Virus record (IMG/VR): IMGVR_UViG_3300018080_000003
Location: 32,001 to 96,000 of that record
Source: a virus
DNA length: 64,000 nucleotides
Strand: one strand, 5' to 3'
The notes below the pieces were generated by a model that was not told the origin of the DNA, ran no database searches, and worked only from the letters and a program-made list of their open reading frames with translations. Positions 53,430-60,441 of this stretch are shown piece after piece (within the stretch, counting starts at the first letter, position 1; each line of letters starts with the position of its first letter). Made by a program: the position numbers and the translations under genes.

Positions 53430-53506
53430 GTTGTCCTCCTTTGGTTCACGAATCGTCACCGAGCACGGTCCCGAAGGACCGAGCCCGAGAACGCGCCGTG
53501 AAGCGC

Positions 53507-53812
53507 TCAGAATGCGACCGTGACGACTTCGCCCCGCTTCGTGCGGGCCGAGCGGTAGCCGTGGGGCCGCTCGATGCCGAGGGCGACCCGCGCCGTCTGC
53601 GCGGCGCCCACGGCCGCGGCGCCCCGGGTCCCGAACGAAGCCCTGAGGCTGAGGTCCAGCAGCTCGTCGTGGTAGTAGACCAGTCTGGTTTCGACCCAGC
53701 GCCCGGGGCTGTCTGGGTCCTCGCTTACGGCCAGGAAGTACTTGATCCCAGACGGCTGCGCGATGACGGCGACGTTGCCTGACTTGTCGCTGATGAGTCT
53801 GCACTCATTCAT
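53507..53812 (-). CDS. Early hypothetical protein
   Basis: AGGA SD. Confidence 0.65.
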   Translation of the reverse strand: MNECRLISDKSGNVAVIAQPSGIKYFLAVSEDPDSPGRWVETRLVYYHDELLDLSLRASFGTRGAAAVGAAQTARVALGIERPHGYRSARTKRGEVVTVAF

Positions 53813-53821
53813 GGCTGTCTC

Positions 53822-54130
53822 CTACAGGCTGTAGGCCTGGTACTTGGTTGACGTCCCCCGCATCGCGCCAAAGCTCGATCCGGTCCGCCCGAGACGGGCG
53901 GCGATGACGAAGCGCCGGGTGTCGGGGCAGACCTCGGCTTGCTCGACGATCGTGCCCTCGACCACGTCCTCCTCGGGCTCGAATCCCATGCGGATGGCGT
54001 AGTCGCGATCGAACTTGGCGTGCCGCTCGCACAGCACGTCAAACGATCCGTAGCGGTGCGAGAGCGCTGCTGCCACGCGGACAGCGTTGTCGCTGTACTC
54101 GCGCGGCATCCCTTGCTTGTAGTAGTTCAT
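53822..54130 (-). CDS. Early hypothetical protein
   Basis: Follows leader repeat. Confidence 0.75.
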   Translation of the reverse strand: MNYYKQGMPREYSDNAVRVAAALSHRYGSFDVLCERHAKFDRDYAIRMGFEPEEDVVEGTIVEQAEVCPDTRRFVIAARLGRTGSSFGAMRGTSTKYQAYSL

Positions 54131-54197
54131 GGTTGTTGTCCTCCTCTCAGCTCGCGTACGCGTGCACGCGAGCTGAGAGAAGGGCAGCAAGCTGCCC
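54131..54197 (-). repeat. Two-hairpin leader repeat copy 1
   Basis: GGGCAGCTTGCTGCCC, long stem, GGAGGACAACAACC. Confidence 0.9.
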
Positions 54198-54204
54198 CTG
54201 CCCG

Positions 54205-54249
54205 TCATTCCCAGACGGGCATGTCGTTTTCATCCCAGTGCCAGTCCAT
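54205..54249 (-). CDS. 14-aa micropeptide MDWHWDENDMPVWE
   Basis: AGGAGG SD, fills gap exactly. Confidence 0.5.
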   Translation of the reverse strand: MDWHWDENDMPVWE

Positions 54250-54258
54250 GGTCTCCTC

Positions 54259-54648
54259 CTAGAAATTGAAGTCGTAGTACTCGCTGCGCTTGCCGAGCAC
54301 CACGGTTCCCCCGCGTTGCTTGGTCGGCGTGCCTACGTGCTTGTAGATGTAGCCCTCGGCGTTCGGCCGCTTGCGGCGCGTGACGACCAGACGCTCACCG
54401 TCCGGGTTGCGTTCGTAGCGGTACCGCTGCGTGCCACTGGTGTGGCCCGCGAAACCTCCCGGACTGAACTGCAGCGCATCGGGCTCTCCCGAGCCATGTC
54501 CGTTCAGCAGGATGGCGCGGTCGCGCTGGAGCACGAGCTTGCGCCCGTTCTCCTTCACCTCGATGACAGTGAATGCCTGGCGATCGCTGTAGCAGTACAG
54601 CGTCGCGCCCATGCCGACCTCTGGTCGGACTTCCGTTTCGGTGTTCAT
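54259..54648 (-). CDS. Early hypothetical phage protein
   Basis: VGMGAT...SDR..TVIEV; YYDFNF. Confidence 0.8.
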   Translation of the reverse strand: MNTETEVRPEVGMGATLYCYSDRQAFTVIEVKENGRKLVLQRDRAILLNGHGSGEPDALQFSPGGFAGHTSGTQRYRYERNPDGERLVVTRRKRPNAEGYIYKHVGTPTKQRGGTVVLGKRSEYYDFNF

Positions 54649-54713
54649 GTTGTTGTCCTCCTCTCTAGGCACATGTCGTGCATGTGCCCAGAGACGAGGG
54701 CAGCAAGCTGCCC
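54649..54713 (-). repeat. Two-hairpin leader repeat copy 2
   Basis: Identical (inverted) to 57527-57591. Confidence 0.95.
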
Positions 54714-54719
54714 CGCGGC

Positions 54720-58204: not shown

Positions 58205-58440
58205 ATCTGAACGGCAACATCAAGCATGGCCGCTTCGGCGGCGACGTGTTGGCGGCTACGCGCTGGGAGAAGAGGGAAGGCATGCGAAAGAGTCGTGTCG
58301 TCCTGATCCAGATCGCCAGCGAGTGGTGTACAGCCATCCACTGCGAGGGGGATTATGAGTGGCTGTACGGCAAGTACTTCGTGACCCCGGAAGCGGCGTG
58401 GGAGAGCTTCACGGAGCGGGCGCGAGACTTGCTCTCGTGA
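58201..58440 (+). CDS. Early hypothetical protein
   Basis: Coupled ORF. Confidence 0.65.
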   Translation: MNLNGNIKHGRFGGDVLAATRWEKREGMRKSRVVLIQIASEWCTAIHCEGDYEWLYGKYFVTPEAAWESFTERARDLLS

Positions 58441-58446
58441 GGCGAT

Positions 58447-58512
58447 AAGACAGCAGGGATGCTGTCTTCCTTTCGGTGCCTGGCATGGGTCAGGCTTCGA
58501 AAGGAGGACAAC
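58447..58512 (+). repeat. Diverged two-hairpin leader copy 7
   Basis: AAGACAGC..GCTGTCTT, CCTTTCG..CGAAAGG, GGAGGACAAC. Confidence 0.75.
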
Positions 58513-58797
58513 ATGAACACGTTCAACATCAAGACGGACGAGCACGGCGATCAGACCGTCGAGATCCGAAACGAGCAGGGCGACGTGGTGGCTGAGATCA
58601 TCGCGGTGCCCGTCAGCAAAGATGGCATGAGCATCGACGTTCGGCCGATGGTTCACGCCAGGGTGCAGAACATCGTTTTCGGTGTCGATGAGATGGATCG
58701 CATGAGCGACCGCTTCGTGTACAACACCAAGAACCACAACGGCAACATCAACGATGTTTGCCTCCCCTTCGTGTGCGTGGAGGTCAACCCGTCATGA
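58513..58797 (+). CDS. Early hypothetical protein
   Basis: Follows leader. Confidence 0.75.
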   Translation: MNTFNIKTDEHGDQTVEIRNEQGDVVAEIIAVPVSKDGMSIDVRPMVHARVQNIVFGVDEMDRMSDRFVYNTKNHNGNINDVCLPFVCVEVNPS

Positions 58798-59174
58798 GAC
58801 AGCTACCGGCAAACCTTCAGGGAAAGCTCATCGAGAGCTACTACGACGGGGGCGAGACCCCGCTCGACTACAACCACCCCGACTTCGACGCGACGCGCGT
58901 CGCGACCGCCATCGTGCGGCACGCCTACGCGATGGGCATCGAGGAGGGGCGAGACCGCGCCGAAGGTCGCTACCCGATGGTTAACGGGAGGATGGGTGCG
59001 CGAGTAAAGCATCCTGTGGGGGGAGAAGAGGTACACGCACAAGACGCGATCGAAGACCTTGATGGCATCCTTTGTGTGATCCTCAGCCATCTGGTCGGTC
59101 GTATGCGGTACACGGAGATGGTCATCGCGCGGGCTCACCAGGAGCTAGAGCGGGCGGTCGTCAAAGAAGCCTGA
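58794..59174 (+). CDS. Early hypothetical protein
   Basis: GGAGG SD, coupled. Confidence 0.65.
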   Translation: MRQLPANLQGKLIESYYDGGETPLDYNHPDFDATRVATAIVRHAYAMGIEEGRDRAEGRYPMVNGRMGARVKHPVGGEEVHAQDAIEDLDGILCVILSHLVGRMRYTEMVIARAHQELERAVVKEA

Positions 59175-59273
59175 GAGGGAAGCGCCTTGCTGGCGCCCCT
59201 CGGGGCGCACGAAAGTTCAATCCAATTGAACGTTCGTGCGGCCCGAGGTGCACGAGCACCCAAGGAGACAAGC

Positions 59274-59666
59274 ATGAAGAAGATCAACGCGAAGACGATG
59301 AAGAAGATCCGAAAGCTCCACGGCAAGCTCGAAGAGGCCATCGCCGAGGCGAACGGCTACATGGACGAGCTGTGCGACCTCGCGAACGAGCAGGCCGACT
59401 TGGCCGAGAACTACTTCGATGAGCGCTCCGAGGGCTTCCAAGAGTCCTACGAGGGCGAGGTCTACCAGGAGTGGATCGACAAGCTCCGTGAGACCGCGGA
59501 GGTGTTCGAGTACCAGCTGGACGAGGTAGACGACCTCGACGAGCTGTTCCCCGAGGAGCCAGACGCCGACCCCGACCTCGACGAGGACGACGAGGACGAC
59601 GACCTCGACGAAGATGACGAGGACGAGGACGAGGACGAGGACGAGGACGAGGAGGATGCAGCATGA
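59274..59666 (+). CDS. Highly acidic protein with poly-DE tail
   Basis: AAGGAG SD, (GACGAG)n tail. Confidence 0.8.
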   Translation: MKKINAKTMKKIRKLHGKLEEAIAEANGYMDELCDLANEQADLAENYFDERSEGFQESYEGEVYQEWIDKLRETAEVFEYQLDEVDDLDELFPEEPDADPDLDEDDEDDDLDEDDEDEDEDEDEDEEDAA

Positions 59667-59878
59667 ACGGCTCTCCCATCTCTGTGGGCAGCAAGGTGCA
59701 CGTCGGCGAGCCCTACTCGGACGAGTACGACGAGGGCACCGTCGTCGAGCGTGAAGGCGACTGTCTCCTGGTCTTCTGGTCGCGCTGCGGCGAGGAGTAC
59801 TGGGAGGCAGAGGACGTGCTGAACCACGGTCACCCTGGCTGCTGGCCGGAGGTGCCGATCGCTGAGCGCGCGAGCTGA
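59663..59878 (+). CDS. Small SH3-like beta-barrel protein (tentative)
   Basis: VGSKVHV..GTVVE..LVFW. Confidence 0.6.
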   Translation: MNGSPISVGSKVHVGEPYSDEYDEGTVVEREGDCLLVFWSRCGEEYWEAEDVLNHGHPGCWPEVPIAERAS

Positions 59879-60006
59879 GCTGAGTTGAGCGTGCAGACTT
59901 GAGCGGCCCTCAGGCCGCCGCCGCGCCCCTTGGGGCGCCGTGTCCACTCTCCGTCCTCCGGGACGGGGCGTGGCCACGGTGCATCAGGCATCGACAGGAG
60001 GACGAC

Positions 60007-60357
60007 ATGGAACGACATCAGATCAACAACGAGGACCACGACCGCCAGGCGCTCGAAGCCTGTGCGGCATCCCACGAGCAGTTTCTCCATGAGCTGGGCG
60101 CCTTCATGGGCATGCTCAAGGAAGATGCCGAGGCCAAGGACCTCGACCACACCGACGTCTTTCGGCTCATCGACGAGGCGGCGAAGATCCTGGGTCCGAA
60201 CACCCGGCTCGATCAGCACGTCCAGTGCACGCAGGAGCTGATCCGAAACCTCGCGGAGGCCGGGCGCTCGCACCGCATCGCCTGGGTTCGCCGCGGGCTG
60301 CAGACCGCTTACAACGGCGCCAAGCGGCACCGCGACTACCTGAGAGGCGAGCTTTGA
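60007..60357 (+). CDS. Early hypothetical protein
   Basis: AGGAGGACGAC leader. Confidence 0.75.
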   Translation: MERHQINNEDHDRQALEACAASHEQFLHELGAFMGMLKEDAEAKDLDHTDVFRLIDEAAKILGPNTRLDQHVQCTQELIRNLAEAGRSHRIAWVRRGLQTAYNGAKRHRDYLRGEL

Positions 60358-60441
60358 GCTGACCCTTCCTCGCTAGGGCCTGAGGAGCTATCTTCTCGGG
60401 CCCCTGCGAGGGCGCGTGAGCCCAACAGAGGAGAACCAAAG

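Follow-up and report, generated by a model that had tools for sequence, protein, structure and literature searches.

Start-associated motifs of two kinds, the SAS and ESAS (start-associated sequence and its extended form) of Cluster K mycobacteriophages and the promoter early stem-loops (PeSLs) of T4-like phages, are already known, and their mechanisms are largely untested. The SAS is a 13-nt asymmetric block that contains a Shine-Dalgarno (SD) sequence and lies right before the ATG, and approximately half of the copies are preceded by a 17-bp inverted repeat with a 4- to 13-nt spacer (PMC3203893, Pope et al. 2011). A functional role for SAS and ESAS still needs experimental verification (2025, PMC12699233). 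Here we describe a repeated structured leader of about 70 nt in the IMG/VR virus record IMGVR_UViG_3300018080_000003 (143,727 bp, GC ~61%, bounded by direct terminal repeats), which belongs to a lineage without a cultured member. We analyzed a stretch of 64,000 nt (the window), bases 32001 to 96000 of that record, and all coordinates are window positions. The leader has seven close and two to four diverged copies, all at 53.4 to 60.4 kb and in coding orientation throughout, and they join early genes that diverge in two arms. Between cultured phages and the 53.1- to 61-kb segment we found no DNA similarity except for 111 bp within one gene, which matches Xylella phage Salvo.

SAS and ESAS are the closest described system in layout, as analogues and not as homologues, and the idea in an original prediction for this DNA that the element had no precedent is therefore withdrawn. 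Like the early-arm leaders, they are confined to the non-structural part of the genome, are found at genes that follow longer intergenic gaps, and keep one orientation relative to the genes. The sequences themselves are unrelated, with the SAS consensus GGGATAGGAGCCC lying 3 to 7 bp before the start and the GGAGGACAACAAC of the leaders 0 to 1 nt before the ATG. ESAS have imperfect arms with a subcluster-specific sequence consensus, whereas the long second hairpin of the leaders (HP2) varies, with 9 of its 17 pairs changed on both sides. Unlike SAS and ESAS, the leaders also include a conserved first hairpin (HP1) and the upstream stop codon in the unit, their long stem overlaps the SD, and they occur in an entirely different host and virus lineage. 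PeSLs (PMC2839356, PMC4122927), which the original prediction had named as an analogue, share with the leaders a span from stop to start, a stem-loop, and an SD plus start codon at the 3' end; both elements appear to flank small ORFan-like genes in hyperplastic regions, and for both, recombination from repeat to repeat has been proposed to drive shuffling. A PeSL is defined by its sigma-70-type promoter, which the leaders lack and for which they have no room, and they also differ from PeSLs in having two abutting hairpins instead of one and a long stem that masks the SD.

The unit consists, in order, of an upstream TGA, about 7 nt, the 7-bp HP1, no linker, the 17-bp variable HP2, and GGAGGA-CAACAAC-ATG-AAN. 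It is thus larger than first described, since the TGA and the second codon AAN (six of seven copies) also belong to it. The spacer between TGA and HP1 departs from this length before m4 (5 to 6 nt, depending on how a G-U closing pair is counted) and before m2 (10 nt), and the spacer of the p8 leader is three bases shorter than in the other copies. HP1 is an exact GGGCAGCTTGCTGCCC palindrome in four copies, with a loop that is mostly CUUG-type or GGGA, and the initiation region CAACAAC-ATG-AAN is conserved and unstructured. All seven copies listed originally are present at their predicted positions and in coding orientation (Table 1). With at most one mismatch allowed, GGAGGACAACAA occurs eight times in the window, compared to 0.29 expected, and all eight occurrences are in coding orientation within 53428 to 58514. 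We built a covariance model from the seven close copies and searched it over the whole 143.7-kb genome, where the seven copies scored 68 to 98 bits and their own reverse complements 15 to 31 bits. Neither this model nor a fuzzy whole-genome scan found further copies outside the early arms, and in 974 kb of unrelated loci, used as a negative control, the model found nothing significant.

Among the looser copies that had been proposed, the one near 59880 is supported by the model and the one near 53430 hardly is. Those near 59175 and 59880 have a different HP1 (type B, GCGCCCCTYGGGGCGC), and their HP2 does not touch the SD. A short, imperfect, multicopy palindrome that occurs in both orientations relative to the genome, with two identical copies, could also be a functionless selfish repeat that has spread in intergenic gaps, similar to miniature inverted-repeat transposable elements (MITEs) or repetitive extragenic palindromes (REPs). 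We consider this explanation highly improbable. Dispersal of the REP or MITE type was not seen, as all copies lie within 53.4 to 60.4 kb at gene starts; they are confined to 7 kb, are always in coding orientation, and each one supplies the SD and ATG of a gene. In addition, the stems differ by compensatory changes and not by random decay, there are no target-site duplications, and the same architecture with a different sequence is found in a relative at 35 to 41% protein identity.

The evidence that the leader acts through its structure comes from the pattern of differences between copies. RNAalifold predicted a consensus in which the 7 bp of HP1 abut the 17 bp of HP2, with the last three HP2 pairs using the GGA of the SD, and 12 of the 24 pairs, including the 9 in HP2, carry compensatory changes on both sides. 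On this consensus structure, 96.4% of cells are paired, compared to 81.3% in shuffles (none of 500 reached the observed value), and sliding the 3' partners by 1 to 3 columns lowers the paired fraction to 34 to 56%. If one mismatch is allowed, the contiguous sense-strand helix is 19 to 23 bp long and covers GGAGG, so that the stem is longer than the 13 to 15 bp first reported. The leader helices are the longest clean hairpins in the genome, with fold z-scores against shuffles of −5.4 to −7.5. Other parts of the first description, namely, the compensatory variation of the second stem, its 5-nt loops in four copies, its extension into the SD, and the placement of the element between early genes of both arms, were all confirmed. 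In HP1 plus HP2 of the six distinct copies, the non-Watson-Crick cells comprise 10 G-U, no A-C, and 5 others (P = 0.002), in both arms, and this excess of G-U without A-C favors a structure on the coding strand.

The SD is less accessible in the leaders than at other starts. Its mean unpaired probability was 0.13 in the seven leaders and 0.375 at 108 other SD-bearing candidate starts (P = 0.003, with 80 nt of upstream context), and the leader regions folded at a mean of −44 kcal/mol, compared to −30 kcal/mol at the other starts (P = 2e-5). A simulated RNA cut 8 nt upstream of the SD increased accessibility in all seven copies, from 0.12 to 0.46 before the cut to 0.33 to 0.84 after it. The diverged p10, p12, and p13 leaders leave the SD accessible as it stands (0.66 to 0.84), because HP2 ends at least 20 nt upstream.

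We found no sigma-70-like promoter in any leader when 52 to 62 kb was scanned, and a terminator scan found no hairpin followed by a U-tract in any of them. What comes after HP1 is the 5' arm of HP2, a mixture of U and C, and after HP2 comes GGAGGAC. HP1 and the SD-spacer are the only conserved blocks, with HP2 filling the entire space between them, and a PeSL-like promoter inside the leader was ruled out, as there is neither a promoter-like site nor a conserved AT-rich block. Since the element has no room for a promoter and no U-tract, it must be transcribed through and act within a polycistronic mRNA, and since HP2 fills the space between HP1 and SD, the downstream gene would be expressed by read-through only. 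We also rejected stop-codon read-through or recoding stimulated by HP1; a TGA lies upstream in seven of seven copies, but the distance from TGA to ATG is 71 to 77 nt without a constant frame, and TGA is common genome-wide (76% of stops). As originally predicted, no Rfam family matches the element: a scan of the window returned one tRNA above the gathering threshold and nothing for the leader, and a permissive scan of 53 to 61 kb returned only far sub-threshold generic hairpin (microRNA precursor) models.

The abutting hairpins might instead punctuate transcription, as a non-canonical tandem attenuator of the "V-shaped" type that lowers transcription stepwise along the arms and that a viral RNA-binding factor may override, as in lambda N/nut or HK022 put, with the SD being simply a strong one. 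Such terminators are predicted in GC-rich bacteria and actinophages (WebGeSTer, PMC3013805) and, like the leaders, have a second hairpin directly after the first, close behind a stop codon, and no U-tail. Termination does occur at PeSL stem-loops (PMC2839356), the sequence of HP1 is conserved, as expected of a hairpin that binds a protein, and GC hairpins similar to HP1 follow genes elsewhere in the genome. One of these, GCGCCC-CGAA-GGGCGC followed by UGUUCUGCCUUCU, lies at 52518 to 52533 on the minus strand, ~45 nt past the stop codon of m8, and may mark the end of the leftward early transcription unit. A candidate for the overriding factor would be p5 (57864 to 58037, plus strand), a protein of 57 residues, 14 of them arginine, whose stretch RPARRRERRN is an arginine-rich motif like those that bind RNA hairpins; p5 had no family or named relative in Pfam, PHROG, phage, or Atlas searches, and we did not retain it as a counterpart of lambda N. 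Hairpins without a U-tract caused no termination by purified bacterial RNA polymerases (PMC3993855), and the leaders have no such tract. Unlike in "V-shaped" terminators, the SD of the next gene is inside the second hairpin, which makes read-through obligatory; as no promoter would fit ahead of the next gene, all genes farther along would be silenced by efficient termination. An attenuator also leaves unexplained why HP2 runs into the SD and is 17 to 23 bp long, and we regard it as unlikely.

We favor the reading that the leader is a junction element with a masked ribosome-binding site, probably opened when a double-strand RNase, for example host RNase III, cuts it, with HP1 left behind as a 3' cap, and we give this reading a probability of roughly 0.45. 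Under it, the module would sit at the junctions of independently acquired gene units in two long early transcripts that run outward from 56.3 to 56.6 kb. The 17- to 23-bp helix would keep the downstream gene poorly translatable in the primary transcript until an endonuclease specific for double strands, most likely the RNase III of the host, cuts HP2, and the cut would free the ribosome-binding site of the downstream message. HP1, just past the footprint of the terminating ribosome, would stay on the upstream message as a protective 3' hairpin, so that each unit would become a separately stabilized and translated mRNA. The T7 early RNase III sites, also named in the original prediction, and the lambda N leader are likewise intercistronic hairpins in polycistronic early mRNA, with no sequence similarity to the leaders. 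For the T7 early mRNAs and the lambda N leader, it is established that the upstream message keeps a stabilizing 3' hairpin after RNase III cleavage and that translation downstream can be unmasked or improved. We found no viral RNase III, T7-type RNA polymerase, or sigma-70 region 2 in the genome (the T7 polymerase search had no positive control), and the enzyme is assumed to be that of the host because no viral RNase III gene was detectable.

Several observations weigh against this reading. RNase III sites of T7 are irregular hairpins with an internal loop and common sequence features, whereas HP2 is a regular helix of 17 to 23 bp without such a loop, and a 17-bp helix is rather short for RNase III, unless one adds the flanking pairs or the stacking on HP1. 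In the p10 and p12 leaders and in the related contig L099 (see below), HP2 stays clear of the SD, so masking cannot be the ancestral function. The six distinct copies are related, and the covariation statistics therefore do not count independent events. The antisense strand folds about as stably as the sense strand, which makes the strand argument from G-U pairs weaker than had been claimed. This stability comes from complementarity between the 3' half of HP1 (UUGCUGCCCUC) and the SD plus spacer, with two mismatches that are C-A in the sense strand and G-U in the antisense strand. In the sense RNA, the same complementarity allows an alternative, weaker fold that competes with HP1 and in which HP2 is longer and the SD and spacer are buried; cleavage does not account for the complementarity.

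This complementarity would have a role in a translational gate that works without cleavage, in which the HP1 5' arm, the HP1 3' arm (as an anti-SD), and the SD-spacer form a three-part switch, or in which an early viral factor, a repressor or an activator, binds HP1 and switches the genes with leaders as a group, much as T4 RegA or the MS2 coat protein does. Every copy can form pairs between the 3' half of HP1 and the SD-spacer at 7 of 9 positions. In a hand alignment of the p8 leader, at columns that are gaps in the computed one, the same pairing register runs on into the AU of the start codon, because the last base of the HP1 loop is A and the spacer lacks 3 nt. With the HP1 5' arm blocked, pairing of the SD and spacer increased in several copies (in p8, the unpaired fraction from SD to AUG fell from 0.40 to 0.15), and the extended helix is already the minimum-energy fold in some contexts. 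A gate would also fit an HP1 sequence that is kept while HP2 varies freely. However, the two C-A mismatches in the sense strand are conserved, so the extension is weak, and as the copies are homologous, the complementarity counts as one observation only (chance about 1e-3). No candidate factor was identified, and a ribosome terminating at the stop codon would be just too far upstream to open HP1. We therefore view such a gate as possible but improbable.

Table 1. Positions and parts of the early-arm leaders (window coordinates; HP1 and HP2, first and second hairpin; bits, covariance model score)
Leader	Span	Strand	Upstream stop	HP1	HP2	SD	ATG	Model score	Remarks
Core, before m6	54128..54207	-	mini-ORF TGA 54207-54205	54197-54182	54181-54142	54144-54139	54130-54128	88.7 bits	
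Core, before m4	54646..54722	-	m3 TGA 54722-54720	54713-54698	54697-54659	54661-54656	54648-54646	94.1 bits	19-bp helix
Core, before m3	55452..55530	-	m2 TGA 55530-55528	55520-55504 (one G-U pair)	55503-55465	55467-55462	55454-55452	88.2 bits	20-bp helix
Core, before m2	55960..56042	-	m1 TGA 56042-56040	variant AGAGTAGC-GTTT-GCTGCTCT 56029-56010	56009-55974	55976-55971	55962-55960	75.1 bits	21-bp helix
Core, before p3	56994..57072	+	p2 TGA 56994-56996	57004-57019	57020-57058	57056-57061	57070-57072	92.5 bits	
Core, before four-gene block p4-p7	57517..57594	+	p3 TGA 57517-57519	57527-57542	57543-57581	57579-57584	57592-57594	98.4 bits	
Core, before p8-p9	58438..58515	+	p7 TGA 58438-58440	variant AGACAGCA-GGGA-TGCTGTCT 58447-58466	58467-58505	58503-58508	58513-58515	68.2 bits	22-bp helix
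Diverged, before p10-p11	59172..59276	+		type B (GCGCCCCTCGGGGCGC) 59193-59208	abutting 13-16-bp hairpin 59206-59240	AAGGAGA			third small hairpin; SD unmasked
Diverged, before p12	59876..60009	+		type B (GCGCCCCTTGGGGCGC) 59923-59938	abutting long hairpin, then ~20 nt	GGAGGACGAC-ATG		23 bits, E 3e-5	SD unmasked
Loose, before m8	53427..53509	-			one long hairpin, UUCG loop	GGAGGACAAC-ATG		11.7 bits, E 0.35	weak membership
Loose, before p13-p14	60355..60444	+			single long hairpin	GAGGAGAACCAAAG-ATG			same architecture, no detectable homology

The early genes diverge outward from an AT-richer hub at 56298 to 56589, with m1 to m8 on the minus strand (56297 down to 52578) and p1 to p14 on the plus strand (56590 to 61082). 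The hub contains a perfect palindrome, CGTGACGCTAAT-AGTA-ATTAGCGTCACG, between outward-facing inverted repeats (CAGCGGTGGGGCAGGGGGTG and AACGGGGGTCAGCG on both sides); a pattern scan for relatives with this palindrome returned three low-GC contigs, all unrelated. The original prediction spoke of single-gene cassettes, and this is true of only some of the units between hairpins, which are m2; m3; m4 with a 14-codon mini-open reading frame (mini-ORF); m6-m7; p3; p4-p7; p8-p9; p10-p11; and p12. The units p4-p7, p8-p9, m6-m7, and p10-p11 hold several genes, as does a further block, p1-p2. Genes within a unit overlap (ATGA) and have no hairpins between them, and m1 and p1, which head the two arms, have a similar initiation region (GGAGGACAGAT-ATG and GAGAGGACATACAG-ATG, respectively) without hairpins. 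Thus, the hairpins mark the boundaries of units of one to four genes. The mini-ORF (54205 to 54249, minus strand; MDWHWDENDMPVWE) has its own SD and overlaps the TAG of m4, and its TGA lies exactly 7 nt before HP1 of the m6 leader, which restores the stop-to-hairpin spacing of the other junctions. Five of the early proteins (m1, m2, m3, m4, and p10) match PHROGs of unknown function. The m3 protein (54720 to 55454, minus strand; 244 residues) belongs to phrog_2554 (E 5e-67), a family of unknown function, and has homologues at 42 to 48% identity in 151 tailed phages of Mycobacterium, Klebsiella, Gordonia, Microcystis, Caulobacter, and others, which makes m3 an accessory gene of wide distribution. 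When the 22 early proteins were compared with one another, there were no significant paralogue matches, so the leaders were not spread by gene duplication.

Alternatively, the leaders might act as DNA, with hairpins in a single-stranded lagging-strand template that flank an origin at the hub and serve as priming sites or as attC-like sites of cassette capture. With a replication start at the hub, lagging-strand synthesis would use the coding strand as template in either arm, G-T wobbles are tolerated in DNA hairpins too, the arms are hypervariable, and there is one tyrosine-recombinase domain in the genome. That domain, the only one, is in a 1225-residue ORF ~36 kb away, and the genome has no resolvase. 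Inspection by eye found no RYYYAAC/GTTRRRY pair at the hairpin base and no core sites like those of an integron attC array. The exact register with stop codon, SD, and ATG speaks against such a model, and the variable length of the HP1 loop (2 to 6 nt) argues against a dimeric DNA-binding site. We consider a DNA-level element very unlikely.

Relatives of the virus indicate how the junctions may have evolved. The combined pattern of HP1 and SD was absent from IMG/VR, and no relatives were found in prokaryote genomes. The 14-mer AGGAGGACAACAAC was rejected as a marker of the element, as it had more than 117 matches, mostly single and unrelated. Model matches among the contigs with the 14-mer are canonical terminators followed by the same ribosome-binding site, which shows GGAGGACAACAAC-ATG to be a convergent good initiation region. 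On an unrelated 7.4-kb viral contig (L174, 6140 to 6515), a cassette repeated before two genes consists of a promoter (TTGACA-17-TATACT), the hairpin GCCGACC-GCC-GGTCGGC, and CCCAGGAGGACA(A/G)CA-ATG; it is a PeSL-like promoter, stem-loop, and SD unit with nearly the same ribosome-binding site as the early-arm leaders. A search through the MoxR-like ATPase was also abandoned, since this family is too widespread and yielded a true relative in 1 of 92 loci (L022); the 974 kb of the negative control were these loci. The 398-residue protein encoded beside the minus arm (49994 to 51190) belongs to a small family of 15 proteins.

The contig L099 (IMG/VR, 41.7 kb, 54% GC) has 35 to 41% protein identity to the studied genome and the same hub layout, with ATTATGGTAACGT repeats and flanking inverted repeats of 34 to 42 nt in the hub. 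Its two junction copies consist of a stop codon, HP1 (GCGCCC-GUUU-GGGGCGC), no linker, an HP2 of 18 to 19 bp (one internal mismatch or bulge), 55 to 60 nt, and an SD; the two HP2s show compensatory differences, and the covariance model scored the copies at 16.5 and 9.2 bits. A 30-bit match at 4703 to 4778 of L099 was not counted as a leader, as it lies inside a 143-codon open frame and has no ATG. The HP1 type of L099 also heads the p10 and p12 leaders, and this layout, common to L099 and the diverged leaders, indicates that the order stop-HP1-HP2 is older than the seven-copy subfamily. It is within that subfamily that HP2 has fused with the SD.

The second relative, L022, is a 91.7-kb metagenome contig with eight ORFs in common at 31 to 41% protein identity. 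Its hub has four copies of CGTGACGATAAT in place of the palindrome, and between this hub and the conserved 398-residue homologue and ATPase there are only three short ORFs (87 and 100 codons in the minus arm and one in the plus arm). Its minus-arm junctions (8516 to 8632 and 8906 to 9026, minus strand) carry a different repeat of 115 nt, in which the hairpin GGCCC-GCGA-GGGCC and a consensus-like T-arm, GCCGG-TTCGAYT-CCGGC (5-bp stem), lie within an acceptor-like stem, CCCUG/CAGGG. Neither ARAGORN nor Rfam made a call for this repeat, which may be an RNase P/Z-type punctuation signal in mRNA. The tRNA-like junctions of L022 point to endonucleolytic punctuation as a theme of the lineage. L099 also has a tRNA-like element (9845 to 9945), just upstream of its 398-residue gene, with a 7-bp acceptor stem (CGCCCAC/GUGGGCG), a long irregular arm, the T-arm GAAGG-TTCGAAT-CCTTC, and 3' ACCA; ARAGORN made no call for it.

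Across three relatives, the gene content of the arms is entirely different and the flanking genes are syntenic, and the arms are hypervariable. We also compared a close relative, on an 82,872-bp contig, at the protein level by protein clusters. The 398-residue protein is conserved at 96% identity, m1 at 95%, m2 at 92%, and p13 at 90% or more, but the m4 homologue has only 61% identity, and m3, m6, m7, m8, p1, p3 to p9, p11, and p12 have no partner at 90% or more. The m4 homologue is identical in the seven leader-encoded residues (PREEDNN) and in residues 1 to 16 of the protein, followed by ~55% identity; the drop after residue 16 places a breakpoint just inside the gene, adjoining the leader. 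These patterns support a hyperplastic region and are compatible with recombination through the leaders. The m4 and p4 leaders share 70 identical bp as an inverted pair (54644 to 54713 and 57527 to 57596), and other pairs differ widely in HP2. This perfect inverted repeat brackets 2.8 kb, comprising the hub and three gene units per side, and an inversion between the two leaders would swap the hub-proximal units across the arms and keep the direction of transcription. The proposal that some 70 nt of common sequence provide homology for recombination and may thus help the arms to vary is therefore supported in part and indirectly.

A wider reading combines expression and exchange. The leader might be a standardized, plug-and-play junction, in which a unit of about 70 nt supplies the stop, the 3' cap hairpin, the processing or gating helix, and an optimal ribosome-binding site, and also the homology for swaps, inversions, and losses. 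It would then be a recombinase-free counterpart of the integron at the RNA level, with relatives using other structured junctions, including tRNA-like ones, and any gene placed between two copies would be expressed predictably. This broader proposal is speculative, and we regard it as unlikely.

These leaders provide unusually clear evidence that the inverted repeat of a start-associated element acts as a structure and not as a sequence, and they tie this structure to a ribosome-binding site and to the preceding stop codon, in a lineage whose relatives place different structured junctions at the same sites. If the leaders turn out to be only a strong ribosome-binding site behind stabilizing hairpins, they would represent the ordinary operon architecture of a GC-rich virus. 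If processing or gating is true, they would offer a compact natural part for synthetic operons and would show how a large virus can give uniform, insulated expression to small early genes that change fast.

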